Shown here: positions 5,761 through 35,038 of the stretch, one piece after another
Position numbering within the stretch: position 1 is the stretch's first letter
Layout of the letters: every line of letters starts with the position of its first letter
Source: Candidatus Bathyarchaeota archaeon
GTDB lineage: Archaea; Thermoproteota; Bathyarchaeia; Bathyarchaeales; Bathycorpusculaceae
Length of the DNA stretch: 64,000 nucleotides
Assembly: GCA_963832745.1 (NCBI GenBank)
Contig: CAWHVC010000001.1
Coordinates: 224,001 to 288,000, forward strand
Reading direction: 5' to 3'
Made by a program: the position numbers and the translations under genes
The notes under the pieces: generated by a model
Databases searched by the model: none
What the model was told of the DNA's origin: nothing
The model's input: only the letters and a program-made list of their open reading frames with translations

Positions 5761-8091
5761 TTAAGGTTTTTTTCTTAACAACAGTAATGTAGCTATAGCG
5801 ACTGCAATTATTACAGCGATGCCTGTACCAATTGTAATAACCGAATTGTCAATTTGCTGGTTTATTTGAGATGTTATTGGTGAGGGTGTTGTAGGTGCTT
5901 CTGTTATTCCAAGTGGAGCCGCGGCGACGGAACTGCCATATGATGCATCTCCAGCAAATGTAGCGTAAATTGTGTATTCTCCTGCAATCTCGGGTTGCCA
6001 CATCTTTTGATACATTCCGGTTAGTCCATCAGAAGTCACTGTGTCAATATGGATCGAGTTTCCGTTTGGATCGATAGCATCAAGCGATACTTGAACACCA
6101 GTTACGGTTGAGGGTATTGGTTTTTGCATGTGAAGGTATTCCATCCATGCACCCATACTTTCAGATGACACACATGGAGTGCCTGGCTGGGCTGGAGAAA
6201 GATCGGTTACTGAACCAGTAATCATTACGCTTTGCCCTAAGGTCGGTGCTGTCAGAGGCATAGAAACTGTGATAGCACTCTTGCCTTTGCCCATTGCATA
6301 CAATTGTAGGTCGTATTCGTCACAGTGCAGTAGGACGCCATCCGCGATAGTTTTAGGGTCACCGGTAGATGCTCCAGATAAGTCAGAGATATTCCATAAT
6401 TGCTGTCCAGTGTATGCGTCTATGCAGTAAAGTCTGTTTCCGATTGGAACTGGGTTGCTTGGACTGTGCTCGCCCGTGCTTTGATAGACTTTTCCGTCAG
6501 CGATGACTGCACCGCCCCACATAGCCCAACCTGGATATGGCGATTCATAGCCAGACGGGGGGGTCTTGTAAACCCATTCTCTTGCGCCTGTTTCACCGTT
6601 AAAGCAGTACAGACCGTCATAGCATGATGCATAGACATTTCCGTATGCGTAGCTCATTCCCGAGTATGACCAGAAGGTTCCCCATGGATAATCGGCTTCT
6701 GCTTCCCATAGTTTAGTGCCTGTAGCCATGTCATAGGCTCGAACTTTTGCGCCATCGCCGGAAGTGAATAGTTTTTCGTCGCCAGCGCATATTGCACCTG
6801 TTTCTCTTTCTTCAGCAGGCAAGGTTCTGTTCCAAAGTACTTGTCCGGTTTCTAAGTCAACACATCCTGACATGCTTGGGTTGTTGGCTATGGTGCCTCC
6901 GTAGCGTCCAGAGATGTATGATATTGCAAAGCCAGGGTCAGAAACATTGTATTTTATCAGTTGCTTGAAGCTTGTTGCTGTGGGCGCGAAACCGAAGACA
7001 GTATTAGAAGCTAAGGGGGCTTCAGTTGTGTTCCAACAGATTAAGCGACCGCCACTTCTGCTGTATACTAATGGGTTTTGAGTGGACCCGTCTAAAGTTC
7101 CGCTAAGTGTGCCGTTTAACCTGTAGACTTCTTGTCCCGTCCATGGATTGTATTTTATGTAGGATGAACCAATCGATACTAGGAACGGCTGGAATTCTAA
7201 GGGTGTTAACCGTTTTTGTTGGAATATAACGCCTGATATTGTAGACATCGACGGATTTACCCAAAGCTCTTCACCTGTTTTGACGTTTACGCAATGCGTC
7301 GCACCTGCTGCGTCTCTATAATAAGTGTACCCGTAAAAGATGATGTTTGTCCGCCCAATTACTGTTGTTGAACCACCACCGTAAGTTAATGATCCATAAT
7401 TTCCGCCGATGATGCCGCCGATTTCTACTTGTTTCTTCCATAGTATGTGAGGTGATTCTGGTCCTTGACTGTATGGGTTAAACCTTGAAGACCCTGCGTC
7501 ATAGCCTGCTTGTACCCAGTCGCCTGCTATTGCACCCCATTCCTTGTTTTCTTCGCGGATTGGACGTTCCCAATACTCTGTTGGTAACGCAACTGGTGCA
7601 ACGCCTGGCACTGGTTCTTCAGTGACGTTGAATGTTAGCACTGGACTTTGGCTTGCCTTGTAGTTTCCGCCTGCCCAATACGCTGATGGGCCTGTGTATG
7701 CGGTTAGATTCTGTGCTGGAAATACTTGTCCTGGAAACACCATTTGATATTTCCATGTGCCAACTTGGTCAGGTACGTATTCAAACCAGTTTGCTGCTGT
7801 TCCCCATGGTTCTGAGTCAATGTTTACTACATCTTGTGTTCCATCAGGTTTTGTGAAAGTTACAATGTAGTGAAAAACTGGTCCGCTTGGAATTGACGGC
7901 GTCATCCATAGGTTAACAAGTAATGTTTGGTCAACACCTATTGGGTCGGGATTGACACTAATGTAGGAAAGAGTTTGAATTTGTTCATCGCCTGAAACTG
8001 ATAGCGTAGATGTAGCCATTATAAGTGTGCTCATCATAAGTATGGCAAAAAGTATTGCTATCGAATTTTTCTTTAAACGTTTTATTTTCAT
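5761..8091 (-). CDS. Secreted, membrane-anchored PQQ-like beta-propeller protein
   Basis: Signal peptide, repeated xxTGxxLW (PQQ-type) blades, C-terminal TM plus RKK. Confidence 0.9.
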   Translation of the reverse strand: MKIKRLKKNSIAILFAILMMSTLIMATSTLSVSGDEQIQTLSYISVNPDPIGVDQTLLVNLWMTPSIPSGPVFHYIVTFTKPDGTQDVVNIDSEPWGTAANWFEYVPDQVGTWKYQMVFPGQVFPAQNLTAYTGPSAYWAGGNYKASQSPVLTFNVTEEPVPGVAPVALPTEYWERPIREENKEWGAIAGDWVQAGYDAGSSRFNPYSQGPESPHILWKKQVEIGGIIGGNYGSLTYGGGSTTVIGRTNIIFYGYTYYRDAAGATHCVNVKTGEELWVNPSMSTISGVIFQQKRLTPLEFQPFLVSIGSSYIKYNPWTGQEVYRLNGTLSGTLDGSTQNPLVYSRSGGRLICWNTTEAPLASNTVFGFAPTATSFKQLIKYNVSDPGFAISYISGRYGGTIANNPSMSGCVDLETGQVLWNRTLPAEERETGAICAGDEKLFTSGDGAKVRAYDMATGTKLWEAEADYPWGTFWSYSGMSYAYGNVYASCYDGLYCFNGETGAREWVYKTPPSGYESPYPGWAMWGGAVIADGKVYQSTGEHSPSNPVPIGNRLYCIDAYTGQQLWNISDLSGASTGDPKTIADGVLLHCDEYDLQLYAMGKGKSAITVSMPLTAPTLGQSVMITGSVTDLSPAQPGTPCVSSESMGAWMEYLHMQKPIPSTVTGVQVSLDAIDPNGNSIHIDTVTSDGLTGMYQKMWQPEIAGEYTIYATFAGDASYGSSVAAAPLGITEAPTTPSPITSQINQQIDNSVITIGTGIAVIIAVAIATLLLLRKKP

Positions 8092-8372
8092 ATTTTCCTC
8101 TCGTTAAATTTCAGATAAATTCAGCTCTCAACCGATTGGGTATTTATATTTTATTTAGTGGGTAAAAAAAAATTAAAAAAAATAACTAAACAAATGAATC
8201 AATGTTGTTTTTTTAGAGCCCAAACTTGAAACCCACTAAACAGAATCAGGCACTCACTCTTATGCCTGCACTAATCACCACTAAAGTGCGCTGAGTGACC
8301 TAAAATAAGATTTAACCGTCGAAGGGGTGATTACATGCTTAGTTAAAAAATAGTTAATGGTGGGGGACAGTT

Positions 8373-8394
8373 GGGGATGATGTCGCCGTCCCAG
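8373..8394 (+). repeat. attL direct repeat (truncated 5' half of the C/D sRNA)
   Basis: Identical to 13273-13294. Confidence 0.9.
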
Positions 8395-8442
8395 CCTTAG
8401 GGCAAAGTAAATTTTATCGATGTTATATGATGTTGTTGAGGT

Positions 8443-8790
8443 CTAGTTATAAGCTTTAGGGGGAATTCTTTCTTTTTCCAATTTGCCAACGAAATATTTC
8501 TCTAAATCATAAATAAACTCGTTAGCATAAGCCATCCAAACATGATGCACGCCTTGGTAAGCTCCGCAATTAGGACAAATATTTCCAAAGTTATGGTCTT
8601 CAAAGACAGTTTCAACGGGTGCAAGATTGCCTCTATATTCTGAATTGTAAACATCTTCAGTCATTGGATATGTTACTTGCATTTTTCCATTGCATTTATA
8701 GCAAGACCAAGGAAATCTATAAACTGAAATTTTCATATTAGTGAGCACCTTTGAAGTAATCTGTTGGTTATTCAATAAATGCTTAATCAT
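8443..8790 (-). CDS. Zn-binding hypothetical protein (element cargo)
   Basis: CYKC...NICPNCG. Confidence 0.7.
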   Translation of the reverse strand: MIKHLLNNQQITSKVLTNMKISVYRFPWSCYKCNGKMQVTYPMTEDVYNSEYRGNLAPVETVFEDHNFGNICPNCGAYQGVHHVWMAYANEFIYDLEKYFVGKLEKERIPPKAYN

Positions 8791-8899
8791 TAATTAGAGC
8801 TGATAATGGAGTACCCAGAAAATAAGCTTAGAATATTCAGTTGGCGGCAACCCTTGTGGTTGCTCGCTTCCAACAAATCCTTCTAAATACTAAGCGAAC

Positions 8900-9538
8900 C
8901 TATTTTCCGCCAACGTCTTCTCGAAAAGCATCCTCAAGAAATGAGTCAACCCTTTTTATGTTAGCAGTTATCTGACTTGTCTGTTCCTTAAAATCAGCAA
9001 ACAATTCAGGATATTTTTTAACGATTTCTATAAGTGTCTTTATCTGCTCCATGCTCGTTTCCTTTAGCAATAGGAAACCAAAAATGGCTGAAACATCAGT
9101 TTTATCAATTTTGCCTTTAGCAAGAATTGCCTGATAACCCATTTTAAACGGTTCATATCCAAGTATTGATGACATTTCAACAACACATTGAAGTTGCCTA
9201 TTTTCTGGATAGATTTCAAGTATTCTGTTTGAGAGGACTTTTTGATTGGCTTCTTCAGCAAGGGCAATATAAACTCCTGCGGTTGTCAGCCAAAAAAGTT
9301 GGTGGTCTCTGCCACGATATTCTTCTAATTTTATTTCGGTTATGATGCCTTTTTCTTGCATTGAATCGAAAGCGTTCCAAACTGACTTGTAATGTCCGTT
9401 AATAATTTTATTTAAGCTGTATTTTGACTTAGGAGGGTTTTCTGCTAAGCATAGGAGTATGCGTTTTTGTAACGGCGGAAGGAACTGGCTTTCGGTAATA
9501 GCTTTTGATATATGTTCTTCCCCTTGTGGTTGAGCCAT
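8900..9538 (-). CDS. Winged-helix DNA-binding protein, divergent from rep
   Basis: N-terminal MarR/PadR-like wHTH (SKYSLNK..HYKSVWNAFDSMQEKGII...FWLTTAG). Confidence 0.7.
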   Translation of the reverse strand: MAQPQGEEHISKAITESQFLPPLQKRILLCLAENPPKSKYSLNKIINGHYKSVWNAFDSMQEKGIITEIKLEEYRGRDHQLFWLTTAGVYIALAEEANQKVLSNRILEIYPENRQLQCVVEMSSILGYEPFKMGYQAILAKGKIDKTDVSAIFGFLLLKETSMEQIKTLIEIVKKYPELFADFKEQTSQITANIKRVDSFLEDAFREDVGGK

Positions 9539-9611
9539 AGTATGTACTCCGATTTTAACTATGTCATACGGTGCCTATATTAAATTTTGCCAATTTATGC
9601 CTCGATGAAAT

Positions 9612-10613
9612 ATGATTAACATTCAATCAACAGAAAAAAACGCAGTATCACTACATCGAGAAATCAAGAACGAGTTTTGGAGTTACGGCGATTATGTATT
9701 AGTGGGGCATGGAAAGCAAACAAACTCCGATTGTGGAAAATTCGATAAATTCATGGGGTGCCTAAATTATAAGGCACATAATCAAACACGTTTCTTCAAT
9801 GAAACCCTAGACAAAGACTCCGTTTTTGTTAAGCCAATTTATCATTCCTGCGACAAACCAACGTGTCCTGTGTGTTTTAAGTATGGATGGGCTGTAAGAG
9901 AAGCTTACCGAATGGAAGAACGTCTAAAAATAGCGTCTAACCGTTTTGGACTTCCAGTTGAGCACATTGTAGCAAGCATTAGAAGCGAAGATTATGGACT
10001 AAGCCTTGACGCATTACGGAAAAAAGCCATAAAACTAATGTCAAATCGCGGAATTATTGGCGGTTCTATAATTTTTCACGGTTTCCGATATGCCAACCGA
10101 AAAGAAGCAAGGATAAAAAGTGTTCCTTTTGGGTGGCGATGGAGTCCACATTTTCACGTTCTTGGCTTTGTTGGTGGGGAAGGTTATGGTAAATGCCGAA
10201 AATGTAAAGGCGGTGACTGTTATGCTTGCAAAGGCTTTGAAGGCGCAACAAGGCGCGAAAACAAAAAAGACGGCTGGCTCGTCAAAGTCCTAGACAAACG
10301 CAAAACTGTAGGCGGAACATGCTGGTATCAGCTAAATCATTGCTCGATTCAAAGAGGCTCAAAAAAATCTCATGCAACAACATGGTTTGGCGCTTGCTCA
10401 TATCGCAAACTCGAAATAATCAACGGTGAAAAAGGCGTTGGAATACAGCATAAATGCCCCATCTGTGACTCAGAATTAGTCCATATACGCTATTTAGGAC
10501 AAGAAAAGTTCTTGCTTACTCGGCGTGGCGAAATCCGATGTATGTTTGCTGAGGATGGAACACCTCTCTGGGAAATAGCGCATGAAGGTGAATGTCATGG
10601 AGGCTGTGGATAA
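9612..10613 (+). CDS. HUH-superfamily rolling-circle replication initiator (Rep)
   Basis: Motif 1-like EHIVAS, HUH motif SPHFHVLG, catalytic-Tyr motif YQLNH, N-terminal SCDKPTCPVC Zn site. Confidence 0.85.
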   Translation: MINIQSTEKNAVSLHREIKNEFWSYGDYVLVGHGKQTNSDCGKFDKFMGCLNYKAHNQTRFFNETLDKDSVFVKPIYHSCDKPTCPVCFKYGWAVREAYRMEERLKIASNRFGLPVEHIVASIRSEDYGLSLDALRKKAIKLMSNRGIIGGSIIFHGFRYANRKEARIKSVPFGWRWSPHFHVLGFVGGEGYGKCRKCKGGDCYACKGFEGATRRENKKDGWLVKVLDKRKTVGGTCWYQLNHCSIQRGSKKSHATTWFGACSYRKLEIINGEKGVGIQHKCPICDSELVHIRYLGQEKFLLTRRGEIRCMFAEDGTPLWEIAHEGECHGGCG

Positions 10614-10924
10614 TGATTCGCCAGCAAAGAAGACGTTTAGAGCGCCAATGGAGCAAGATAAAGGTGGGCGAAATATGTACAGACTTCATTGAAAAAAACA
10701 ACCTTTTCACACCTCCTCACATTCTTTCCTTCCAAGCGGTGAAATTATCTGAGTATTTAGTTGGCGTGTATAATGTTGGGCTCTTTAATTTCAAGAAAGA
10801 CAAAGGGCATGGAGAATTCTTCACGACCTGCATGTTTGTTGAAGGTTGCTTAAGAAATCTGCACTCTGAACGGTTGGGTTTCATTCAAGAGTTTGATTTG
10901 TGGGAGGTGGACGAAATCGATTGA
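10592..10924 (+). CDS. Hypothetical protein overlapping the rep 3' end
   Basis: Coupled to the rep stop (TAATG at 10611-10615 suggests a start at 10613). Confidence 0.55.
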   Translation: MSWRLWIMIRQQRRRLERQWSKIKVGEICTDFIEKNNLFTPPHILSFQAVKLSEYLVGVYNVGLFNFKKDKGHGEFFTTCMFVEGCLRNLHSERLGFIQEFDLWEVDEID

Positions 10925-10945
10925 TGCTTTGGCGCATCGTTTGGC

Positions 10946-11006
10946 TACTTGCGGAAAGTTCGGCAAGCGATAAGCGGAGCGCACCGCGCAAGCGGGCGCG
11001 AACTTT
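10946..11006. other. GC-rich nested hairpins, candidate replication origin (sso/dso)
   Basis: AAAGTTCG(10955)/CGAACTTT(10999) enclosing GCGC-A-CCGC-GCAA-GCGG-GCGC; GC island in AT-rich surroundings after the rep operon. Confidence 0.45.
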
Positions 11007-12328
11007 AGTAAAAAAATTGGTTATCTCTTAATCAATTGATTTAGTCAACTTCTTCTTTTCCATCTTTTTTGTGATATAATCAGTTATACCTTCAACTAAA
11101 TCATTAACAAATATTCTTTCATCATCTGAAACACTTGTTCCAAAATGCTCACCGAAGTTAGGATAGTATGTTATATGTTATTTTAAGAAGGTCAACTATA
11201 CTGATTAATTATCAGTTCTCATCAGTGCTATCATCAATGAGAAATTTGAATGTGTTTTTTCAACATCTATTGCTTTACTTTTAGTGGACCCAAGAAATTT
11301 CTATCTATGTTGTAGCCCTTTTTCTGAACTAAGCTTAATTGCAGAATTATTGTTAATGATTTTTGCGCTTAACCGTCAGTAATCAAACATAGATTTCATA
11401 AATGTCAGAGTCAATCCAGCAATCAATTCATTGCAGCAACTTAAACTTTGAAGACCATATCAGAAAGAATGCTTTAAATTATATTGCTCCACTTGCCTAA
11501 GGCAATTATTACTCACGCAAATTTTTTTTCGATTATTTCTTATCAATCTTGTTTCATATGGAAATGGCGATTTTTGGCCCAGTTTGTGTTAATTCCAAAT
11601 ATCCAAGTGAATTCCCATGCAATTCTATAAAATATTACCGTCAGTAATGACATGTAGGGTAAAATCAAGGTTGTACATTCAAAAAATAGCCTTTTCCATT
11701 ATAATTATTTGAAACGTGATCCAAGGTGCGAATGATGCCTCCAATTCAAAAAATTATTCACGGTTCATTTGCGACTTCAAGTTATCCTTCCCAATTAAAA
11801 GAGACTTGAAAGATAGACGAGTAATTTAGTAGCCAGGCGTAATCATGAGTAGGCGATATTTTTTTGCTATTTGGTCAAGTTTCGACAACAAGAACTTTTA
11901 AATTTAATCGTTAAAATAATAAATTTAAGCTAGGAGATCTGAACTTACCCGTAGGTTCTATTTCTTTAAGAGGGATAGGTTTGAATTGGTTGAAAAGCTA
12001 TCGGCATTACCTTTAGTCAATTAACGTTGATTCTATCAAATTTTTAATATATCTGTGGTATCAGAGAATATGACGGACATAGAGGCAGTGAAGACAGCTA
12101 AAGTGTAGTAGTGACTGAGGGTGAGAGACTGAGTGACTGACAGACAGAGGGTGACATGACATTATTAACGGGGATTTTGCGCATATATTACGTCATGGTT
12201 AGTAGAGAAAATCAAGAATTTGCGGGCTTTTTTAAAATACCATAACAGTAAAATTGATTTTGTTGATTGCTTCTTGAATTCGCCATCTAAAGCAGGATAT
12301 AGCATCACCAACGGGTATGGCATCTTGC

Positions 12329-13213
12329 TTAATTGCTTGTTGTACTTGTTTCGTCTGTTGTGCATTTTAGTGGTATCCACTGGATTTCTTGGTCTTCAGT
12401 AATGTATTTTTCAGTGCTTCTTGCGTCTTTGTGTCCAAGTATTTTTTTAACTTGCAAAAAGTTGTGTCCTGATAGTTTGTATTCTCTTGTGCCTTTTCGT
12501 CTGCGGAAATCATAGAGTTGCACTTGTTTTAGTTCGGGCATGTTGTATTTTTCTGCAAGGTTGTTTCTTGCATGTCTGTAACATGTGCTTAAGGTGTCTG
12601 AGGATGTTGGAAAAATTATGCTTTGAGCGTTTAGGTTTTCACGTTTGATATACCTTTTTAGCAGTTCTAAGGTGTCCTGCTTTAGTTTTCCTTCTCTTCC
12701 GATTGTATGTTTTGCGCCTGTAAGGTCAGTTCTTCCTGTTACTAAATCAATGTCTTGAACCTTTAGCCATGTTAATTCGATAGGGCGTTCCCCTAAATCT
12801 CGAGACATCTTTAATTTAAGGTTCAAAGGAAATTTAACGTGATTTATAATAAATTGCACTAATTCCTCTTTTGGTGCCCTACGCTTCTTATCTTGGCGCT
12901 GATAAAAGGGCTTATTCCATGATAACCCTAAAGATTGAATCGCTATATTATAGGATTCTATCAGGTTTTCCTTTCTGGCGTTAGATACATTCTTGTTTGC
13001 TATGTATAGTTTGACTTCTTGAGGGTTGCTTGTGTTGCAGTTTTTCTGTAAATGTTTAAGTTCCTTTACTACTCTTTTGATGGTTGTTGGTTCATAGGCT
13101 TCTTTTTTCATCCAAATAATAACGTTAGCTAAGTTAAGGTTTCCAATATCTTTAGGGTCTTGGGTTTCCTGTTGAAGTTGTTTTAAGAGCTCTTTTACGA
13201 GTTTAGGGTTCAT
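12329..13213 (-). CDS. Tyrosine recombinase / integrase
   Basis: GERPIEL (Arg I), K in GAKH, YDFRR (HxxR variant), LGHK and TEKY catalytic Tyr; C-terminal tail appears frameshifted. Confidence 0.92.
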   Translation of the reverse strand: MNPKLVKELLKQLQQETQDPKDIGNLNLANVIIWMKKEAYEPTTIKRVVKELKHLQKNCNTSNPQEVKLYIANKNVSNARKENLIESYNIAIQSLGLSWNKPFYQRQDKKRRAPKEELVQFIINHVKFPLNLKLKMSRDLGERPIELTWLKVQDIDLVTGRTDLTGAKHTIGREGKLKQDTLELLKRYIKRENLNAQSIIFPTSSDTLSTCYRHARNNLAEKYNMPELKQVQLYDFRRRKGTREYKLSGHNFLQVKKILGHKDARSTEKYITEDQEIQWIPLKCTTDETSTTSN

Positions 13214-13269
13214 TCATTTTCATCTTTCCTTTACCAAAACCCTAAGATACTGGGACGATGTTTCAATCG

Positions 13270-13337
13270 TTGGGGGATGATGTCGCCGTCCCAGTCGGAT
13301 TGCGAAAGATGACGAGCTTATGACGGACAGACCCCAA
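13270..13337 (+). ncRNA. Box C/D guide sRNA (overlaps attR)
   Basis: Terminal stem TTGGGG/CCCCAA; C ATGATGT 13277-83; 12-nt guide; D' CGGA 13296-99; TT-GCGA-AA loop; C' ATGACGA 13309-15; 12-nt guide; D CAGA 13328-31; box deviations are mutually compensatory. Confidence 0.85.
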
Positions 13338-13616
13338 GCGTCAACATCAAAATTTTTAAAATTTTAAAATAGTGTTCCTGCACCGAAAATGTAAGAAATC
13401 ACAATGGTTACGCAGAGGGAAATGCAGAGGAAAGGGCAGGCTTTTCTGGAAAAAAACGCTGTGTAATAAACCTCAAACTCACGTTTTAAATGGCGTAGGC
13501 ATATGTGGGCGAGCCTATATTCCATTAAAGCCTCCTCCTTCTCCTCAAGAAAAGTTGGGCTTTTAGAGTTTATAAAGGGTATTTCAAACGTGGAATACCC
13601 TAATGGAGAGAAGAGG

Positions 13617-34719: not shown

Positions 34720-35038
34720 TGGGCTGGCGAGTTGGTGTGTGGCTTTCGGATCCAGTTTACTGGGTCTGAGGAAACTCCGCCCACACGTAGAATTGCAGCA
34801 CCTCTCGGGTGCAAGGTGAGAACCTTGGCAACGGAGCAGAAACGACACGTCCAACCAGAGCTTAACGGATGAGGCACCATAAAATGCCGACCATGCTGGT
34901 TTGGAAGCGGTGAAACGGCCGTCCTGCAAGTGGAAAGGGCAAACAGTCGCTGATGACCCTCTACAGGAGGCGCGGGTAGCCCGATTAGCCGAATGCCACT
35001 TAAACAAAAGGCGGGTTACATCCAACACACCACGCCCA
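34720..35038 (+). ncRNA. rnpB: Archaeal RNase P RNA
   Basis: CR-I GAGGAAACTCCGCCC, CR-II GCAGAAAC, CR-III GGTGAAACGGC, CR-V AACAAAAGGCGGGTTA; complementary ends; TATA-like box about 25 nt upstream. Confidence 0.95.

Follow-up and report, generated by a model that had tools for sequence, protein, structure and literature searches.

A double-guide box C/D small RNA gene of Bathyarchaeia, predicted to target two sites of the peptidyl-transferase centre and to provide in its 5′ part the attachment core of small integrase-bearing elements

The window analysed here is a stretch of 64,000 nucleotides from a Candidatus Bathyarchaeota archaeon (positions 224001–288000 of contig C1 in genome G000, a genome of 3.02 Mb with a guanine + cytosine (GC) content of 41–42%). 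Between positions 13270 and 13337 the window carries a sequence with the layout of a double-guide box C/D small RNA (sRNA), and the first part of this sequence is repeated on the far side of an element of about 4.9 kb that carries an integrase gene. The locus raises a question with two sides: what such an RNA would guide, and why half of its gene should be found twice. Methylation of nucleotide G2251 of 23S ribosomal RNA (rRNA; Escherichia coli numbering) as Gm2251 is common to all three domains of life, and bacteria use a protein enzyme for it, eukaryotes an RNA guide. The best explanation overall, in which we have considerable confidence, is that the sRNA directs methylation at two sites of the peptidyl-transferase centre, G2251 among them, and that the 5′ part of its gene is at the same time the attachment (att) core of a family of mobile elements. 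From the comparisons given below we infer expression, assembly of a ribonucleoprotein (RNP), methylation, promoter use and integrase specificity. Since sRNAs directed at G2251 have already been predicted in other archaea, the new point is the att-site role.

Judged by its sequence, the locus is a real box C/D sRNA gene, as a preliminary description of this DNA had proposed. It reads UUGGGG-G-AUGAUGU-CGCCGUCCCAGU-CGGA-UUGCGAAAG-AUGACGA-GCUUAUGACGGA-CAGA-CCCCAA, with all four boxes, a terminal stem of 6 bp and two guides whose length of exactly 12 nt, also part of that description, can be read off directly (coordinates of all features are collected in Table 1). The GGGG/CCCC part of the stem is retained in every homologue that was parsed. 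In box C the GA of the sheared pairs is intact, and the two internal boxes, D′ (CGGA) and C′ (AUGACGA), are variants that both keep their GA dinucleotides. The gene occupies a gap of 150 nt, with open reading frames (ORFs) of the minus strand on both sides. When the whole genome was scanned strictly for the dual boxes and a stem of 4 bp or more, this locus alone was returned and the shuffled genome gave no match; a second strict dual-box scan gave four candidates, against one in shuffled sequence. A loose pattern, in which a box C and a box D are combined with a stem of at least 5 bp, showed no enrichment, with seven matches in the genome and 13 in the shuffled control. The proteins that such an RNA would recruit are encoded in the same genome: the genes for fibrillarin and Nop5 are adjacent on contig C5 (PF01269, 5.8e-95; PF01798, 1.6e-71), and a gene for L7Ae lies on contig C3 (PF01248, 3.5e-28).

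Two more candidate C/D sRNAs with canonical CUGA boxes lie on contig C3 (385692–385744, minus strand, and 572584–572632, plus strand), one of them with a terminal stem of 8 bp. When the sRNA of the window is folded as naked RNA, its guides pair with each other (CCGUC/GACGG; minimum free energy −24.5 kcal/mol, z = −2.36), a pairing that is probably irrelevant inside the RNP.

The preliminary description had assigned the D′ guide to the P-loop of 23S rRNA, with the N+5 rule pointing to G2251, and the organism's own 23S rRNA agrees. Its P-loop, GGCUGGGGCGGCA, contains the unique best rRNA match of the guide (site GCUGGGGCGGCA), in which 11 of the 12 positions pair, nine by Watson–Crick pairs and two by G-U. 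Alignment of this 23S rRNA to E. coli rrlH places the N+5 nucleotide at G2251, in a Watson–Crick C-G pair. The D guide finds its best rRNA site in helix 93 (ACCGUCGUGAGA), where 10 contiguous pairs form (eight Watson–Crick and two G-U), and by the same alignment its N+5 nucleotide is U2593, in a Watson–Crick A-U pair. Two possible targets had been offered for this guide, of which helix 93 is upheld; helix 34 of 16S rRNA was rejected, as the best 16S matches have two or three mismatches. From these pairings and from the conservation described next, the P-loop is very likely the target of the D′ guide, and helix 93 is likely that of the D guide. The 23S sequence used reaches the contig end, so that its 5′ end lacks about 245 nt, and its model match has a gap between positions 460 and 556. 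The 16S (C5:524515–526004) and 23S (C5:643790–646589) genes are unlinked, about 118 kb apart.

A BLAST search with 111 nt found homologues of the sRNA in 36 of 41 relatives. A pattern made of boxes and stem, with the guides left free, matched 112 of the 401 genomes of the class, and the reversed pattern used as a control matched none; all of these matches are in the window's own order (f1, 84/103; f7, 16/18; f6, 5/11). Box and guide counts were taken over 95 distinct homologue rows, in all of which the D′ guide is 12 nt long. Among the guide-free matches listed, the D′ guide reads NGCCGUCCCAGN throughout with three exceptions, and its core GCCGUCCCAG is retained in nearly all matches of the pattern. 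Two of the exceptions (G117 and G220) have GCCGCUCCAG, which shifts a wobble from G2253 to G2252 and preserves all pairing, the P-loop of G117 itself being unchanged, while in the third (G256) the guide is unrelated. Only positions 1 and 12 vary freely, that is, the two ends that are poorly paired to the target. The core was also found in C/D frames in contigs of Jordarchaeia, Baldrarchaeum, Njordarchaeota, Iainarchaeum, Micrarchaeota and Acidilobaceae. For the D guide, a core of the form CUCAUGACGG, CUUAUGACGG or CUCACGACGG recurs across families and in contigs of Jordarchaeia, Baldrarchaeum and Acidilobaceae, and every one of these variants pairs with CCGUCGUGAG by Watson–Crick or wobble pairs. 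A D guide complementary to helix 93 is kept in 37 of the 95 homologues.

In the mechanism that we propose, the sRNA would be bound by L7Ae, Nop5 and fibrillarin. Pairing of the D′ guide with the P-loop would then lead to 2′-O-methylation of the equivalent of G2251, and pairing of the D guide with the 5′ strand of helix 93 to methylation of the equivalent of U2593. The two nucleotides lie along the P-site of the peptidyl-transferase centre, and simultaneous pairing at both may aid folding there.

The preliminary description had also taken the non-canonical boxes for covarying, compensated changes. By standard kink-turn (k-turn) geometry, position 3b.3n in the window is U-A in the C/D k-turn and C-G in the C′/D′ k-turn, so the pairs themselves are as described; a general covariation was not seen, and the claim of compensated boxes is overstated. 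Box D is CAGA in 92 of the 95 rows, box C is AUGAUGU in 79, and 88 rows have U-A at 3b.3n of the C/D k-turn. On this alignment CAGA is a fixed single change opposite the canonical U of box C (U.U to U-A) and not one half of a compensated pair, and because it is fixed in 92 of 95 homologues it is apparently tolerated. In each of the 80 rows with U at the end of box C, this base faces an A or G immediately ahead of box D, an opposition which, as far as the aligned sequences indicate, lengthens the non-canonical stem.

The internal k-turn is far more varied. Box D′ is CUGA in 74 rows, CCGA in 14, CGGA in five and CAGA in two, and box C′ is AUGAAGA in 55, AUGAGGA in 24 and AUGACGA in 16. Position 3b.3n of the C′/D′ k-turn is A-U in 39 rows, G-U in 20, C.U in 15, A.C in 10, G-C in four, A.G in four, A.A in two and C-G in one. 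Across these relatives no C′/D′ covariation was found, with 64 of 95 rows pairable compared with a permutation mean of 65.9. The window is the sole row with C-G, which a class-wide pattern search met again in the close relative G389. Relatives that share the C′ box AUGACGA keep CUGA as D′, and in the remaining genomes with CGGA the C′ box is AUGAAGA and the opposition A.G; read in this way, the C-G of the window is a private U-to-G change in D′. According to the accessible text of one report, k-turns with a Watson–Crick 3b.3n pair do not fold in metal ions alone (PMC4382518), and in an excerpt of another, box C/D k-turns, typically U:U at 3b.3n, are unfolded in ions and fold with L7Ae (PMC5689011). 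Box C/D k-turns with a Watson–Crick pair at this position would presumably also fold with L7Ae. With such pairs in both k-turns of the window, folding should become protein-dependent and not be abolished, which suggests that the box variants are compatible with function.

The other side of the question concerns the repeat. A 22-nt sequence from the 5′ half of the sRNA has two matches in the window (Table 1) and none elsewhere in it, with zero expected by chance. The integrase gene of the intervening element is divergent from the sRNA, with its start 56 nt away on the other strand, and the other ORFs of the element have no Pfam or PHROG family match. GC content is 0.32–0.37 in windows centred at about 11200–13400, 0.35–0.375 at 8000–9800 and 0.40–0.45 at 9600–11000, and 0.38–0.49 in the adjoining flanks; the element is patchy in this respect, so that composition is not diagnostic. 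The arrangement points to 22–25 nt of the 5′ part of the sRNA as the att core for a family of small integrase-bearing elements, with the specificity of the integrase deduced from its position. Upon integration, an element arriving upstream would supply the sequence before the intact sRNA, probably the promoter too, and would leave a truncated 5′ half of the gene at its far end.

Relatives show the same association repeatedly. Integrase homologues stand beside the sRNA in the same divergent orientation at 26 of 150 loci, equal to 24 of 92 distinct sRNA rows, and are absent in the remaining 68. The gene that follows the sRNA is syntenic at 24 loci, of which some have an integrase and others none, and in G164 and G369 the sRNA is followed directly by a ferredoxin gene, without the element. 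The 333-aa and 110-aa ORFs and the integrase recur together at four loci (L126, L128, L098 and L115). In L126 the arrangement is the same, with a 23-nt repeat 4951 nt apart, and positions 8373–8422 of the window, the left end of the element, match this locus at 98% over 50 nt. The 26-nt attL junction was found in 83 metagenome contigs. In 19 of these a second core follows 0.5–9.2 kb downstream, and the examples inspected are full sRNAs; in 10 an integrase gene lies downstream of the junction, in the contigs inspected just before a full sRNA. In nine of the 83 an integrase stands upstream of the junction at a distance of under 400 nt, an arrangement that would reflect either tandem arrays or an attP-like form.

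Elements of this family range from about 0.5 to 9.2 kb, and many copies are decayed. In one relative (G003) two truncated copies and a full copy whose D guide is A-rich stand in an array (C1:1100228–1107489; L034, L035 and L025), and a separate full copy with an intact helix 93 guide lies at another locus (C1:601612; L009); this looks like serial integrations plus a paralogue. Viral contigs gave no match to the exact junction and none to the integrase protein. A looser core pattern matched 78 viral contigs, none with an integrase match; three of them passed a minimal context filter, and in these three the core stands in a GC-rich context without the box architecture.

The sequence just upstream of the sRNA has features of its own. 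The spacing of a TATA-like element would put the start of transcription at the first G of the stem. Between this element and the stem lies an 'anti-guide', an inverted repeat of part of the D′ guide. With at least seven contiguous pairs to the own D′ guide at a fixed offset as the definition, 36 of the 92 upstream regions have an anti-guide, compared with five of 92 for the shuffled guide and two of 92 for the reversed guide, and in some copies the complementarity covers the full 12 bases of the guide. Beside integrases the anti-guide is more frequent (15 of 24) than where they are absent (21 of 68). With the likely start lying downstream of it, the anti-guide would probably be left out of the transcript. 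The minimum-energy structure of 13240–13337 has no pairing between leader and guide; a fold of the truncated segment 13240–13300 does use it (z = −1.06). We do not favour an RNA-level role for the anti-guide and lean towards a role at the DNA level, in the recombination site or the promoter.

These features would fit a reading in which the sRNA gene is a safe-harbour att site, like tRNA genes, and the P-loop guide, invariant under the constraint of its rRNA target, a durable recognition sequence. As integration takes place in the 5′ half of the gene, the element would replace the native promoter, and the anti-guide (CUGGGACG), located some 25 nt upstream of box C, would belong to the recombination site or to this imported control region and would not be an RNA element. 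We put this forward tentatively, at somewhat short of even chances. If it is true, the host transcribes its only guide for P-loop methylation from sequence that a mobile element has brought in.

Table 1. Features of the sRNA gene, its flanks and the adjoining putative integrated element (positions in the window)
Feature	Position	Strand	Remarks
Double-guide box C/D sRNA gene	13270–13337	+	direct reading of the sequence
Terminal stem, 5′ strand, UUGGGG	13270–13275	+	6 bp with 13332–13337
Box C, AUGAUGU	13277–13283	+	final U where the consensus has A; 6/7 match to RUGAUGA
D′ guide, CGCCGUCCCAGU, 12 nt	13284–13295	+	antisense to the 23S P-loop
Box D′, CGGA, non-canonical	13296–13299	+	CUGA in most relatives
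D′–C′ spacer, UUGCGAAAG, 9 nt	13300–13308	+	sequence
Box C′, AUGACGA	13309–13315	+	sequence
D guide, GCUUAUGACGGA, 12 nt	13316–13327	+	antisense to 23S helix 93
Box D, CAGA, non-canonical	13328–13331	+	C and GA kept, U replaced by A
Terminal stem, 3′ strand, CCCCAA	13332–13337	+	sequence
Putative attR core, 22 nt	13273–13294	+	identical to 8373–8394; spans stem, box C and most of the D′ guide
Putative attL core, truncated copy of the sRNA 5′ half	8373–8394	+	truncated copy at 8370–8394; the element's conserved left end, CCUUAGGGCAAAG..., comes next
Putative integrated element, ~4.9 kb	8395–13268	.	between the 22-nt repeats
Tyrosine integrase, 294 aa	12329–13213	-	PF00589, 1.5e-8, residues 129–274; phrog_216 integrase, 2.9e-12
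Two conserved element ORFs, 333 aa and 110 aa, no family match	9612–10924	+	
A/T-rich TATA-like element	13233–13241	+	TTTAT peak in information content, −34 to −30, across 92 aligned upstream regions
Anti-guide, ACUGGGACG	13243–13251	+	nine-base exact inverted repeat of D′ guide bases 13287–13295
Candidate archaeal terminator, T-runs TTTTT and TTTT	13353–13365	+	proposed from sequence only

Several observations weigh against the explanation that we prefer, and they are considered here with the alternatives. Shuffled guides match the organism's own rRNAs equally well in 1097 of 5000 cases (22%) for the D′ guide and in 581 of 5000 for the D guide; complementarity alone is not significant, and the case therefore rests on conservation. 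Position 1 of the D guide is mismatched to helix 93, and in 58 of the 95 homologues this guide has decayed to varied A-rich sequence with the helix 93 target intact, as in G008. Decay of the guide beside an intact target marks the P-loop guide as the constrained function and the helix 93 guide as dispensable, and methylation of U2593 would be dispensable and may be absent in this genome too. Accordingly, the RNA may be made and assembled into an RNP in which only the D′ guide works, the D guide being an orphan or degenerating and U2593 unmethylated. Besides the A-rich guides, the mismatch and the shuffled matches, the two G-U pairs of the window's D guide speak for this possibility. Against it, the core complementary to helix 93 recurs across families and phyla with wobble-compatible variants only, and the window keeps its 10 contiguous pairs with the Watson–Crick A-U at N+5, so that we regard it as unlikely, if worth serious attention. 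Three of the four boxes deviate from the consensus, the D′ box CGGA is rare (five of 95 rows), and CGGA might weaken the C′/D′ k-turn that positions fibrillarin for the G2251 site. The same box changes, as weakening catalysis, would suit an RNA that is mainly a folding chaperone joining the P-loop and helix 93 during assembly, with methylation secondary or absent. The targets are 342 nt apart in 23S rRNA and both belong to the P-site, and chaperone roles for double guides are proposed by Dennis et al. (2015) in the available part of their text (PMC4644070). Many relatives, however, have lost the second guide and kept the first, which favours a P-loop guide alone, and an excerpt of a further study reports Gm at the equivalent of G2251 (Gm2353) in ribosomes of another archaeon, T. 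kodakarensis (PMC12124282); a mainly chaperoning RNA appears improbable to us.

The identity of the first target meets a further objection, since the D′ guide has one near match in a scan of 40 tRNAs, the 5′ end of tRNA-Cys (positions 1–12), with which 11 of its 12 positions pair. This match includes three G-U pairs against two for 23S rRNA, and we judge it weaker than that to the P-loop. The invariance of the guide across an order and its recurrence in other phyla are more in keeping with a universal rRNA target than with a single tRNA, and the variant in G117 keeps the P-loop pairing; that the 5′ acceptor strand of tRNA-Cys, or another RNA, should be the substrate in place of the P-loop is thus very improbable. 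We give equally little credence to the idea that the locus is only DNA, an att site or a relic of a mobile element without a functional sRNA. It would account for a 5′ half that coincides with the att core and has a truncated duplicate, but conservation of the boxes, the 12-nt spacing, C′, D and the terminal stem reaches well past the 22-nt core, it holds where no integrase is nearby (68 of 92 rows), and the genes for the RNP proteins are present. Also to be set against the preferred explanation, on the side of the element, are the lack of any circular or excised form, with no terminal overlap among the 83 junction contigs, and the lack of a clean empty site in a close relative, G389 holding a decayed copy without attL.

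Yeast snR67 guides 25S Gm2619. This position is listed as the equivalent of G2251 in PMC11542601, Table 1 of which also equates Haloarcula marismortui Gm1950 with E. coli G2251; the source cited there gives E. coli 1909 (PMC2584109), and with the equivalence in conflict Gm1950 was not used as support. In Rfam, snR67 (RF01177) is the best match of the window's sRNA, and a weak one (19.2 bits, E = 0.087, gathering score 55). The likeness runs through the guide region and the CGGA just after the guide, and the second guide differs. The sRNA is not a member of the snR67 family, given 19.2 against 55 bits, and the resemblance is best explained by the shared target. Pyrococcus/Thermococcus sR22 and sR60 are alike in box order and size, with scores of 12.6–13 bits against gathering scores of 40–50.

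Among archaea, guidance to the equivalent of G2251 is predicted in three of seven in the part of Dennis et al. drawn on here (PMC4644070). The sRNAs concerned (pan-archaeal G2520; for example Methanopyrus kandleri sR13/sR45), compared by description only, are of the same RNA class, with the same machinery and P-loop target nucleotide, and likewise have a double-guide layout and 12-nt guides. Unlike them, the sRNA of the window belongs to an apparently mesophilic lineage of Bathyarchaeia, has a fixed CAGA as box D and carries a partner guide for U2593 in helix 93. The element, for its part, resembles the archaeal integrative elements that target tRNA genes (PMC8371274). These likewise have an integrase beside the att site. 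A segment of a small stable RNA gene is directly repeated at their two ends, with the gene restored at one junction and left as a truncated copy at the other, and they also form tandem and decayed copies; here, unlike in those elements, the target is a box C/D sRNA gene, and its 5′ half is used. The attB sites given in a review of archaeal integrases are tRNA genes, intergenic sites and protein genes, with no mention of an sRNA, snoRNA or non-coding RNA (PMC8371274). The ten best-ranked results of a full-text literature search likewise included no paper that named a box C/D sRNA in connection with integrases or attB.

Use of the 5′ half of an sRNA gene as an att site would widen the set of RNA genes exploited by archaeal mobile elements, and the 22-nt core offers a sequence tag for finding such elements in metagenomes. 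For the large and uncultivated group Bathyarchaeia, the sRNA itself provides a concrete, testable guide for a ribose methylation that is among the few found in all three domains. Its box D makes it a lineage-wide natural case of a box C/D k-turn with a Watson–Crick 3b.3n pair, which is useful for tests of the rules of k-turn folding. The helix 93 guide has decayed time and again with the neighbouring P-loop guide left intact, and this serves as a natural experiment that bears on the dispensability of rRNA methylations.

No C/D family of Rfam reached its gathering score for the sRNA, and RNase P was the sole family above threshold in the window. It is represented by a full-length archaeal RNase P RNA (RF00373) at 34727–35030 on the plus strand, with a score of 185 bits.

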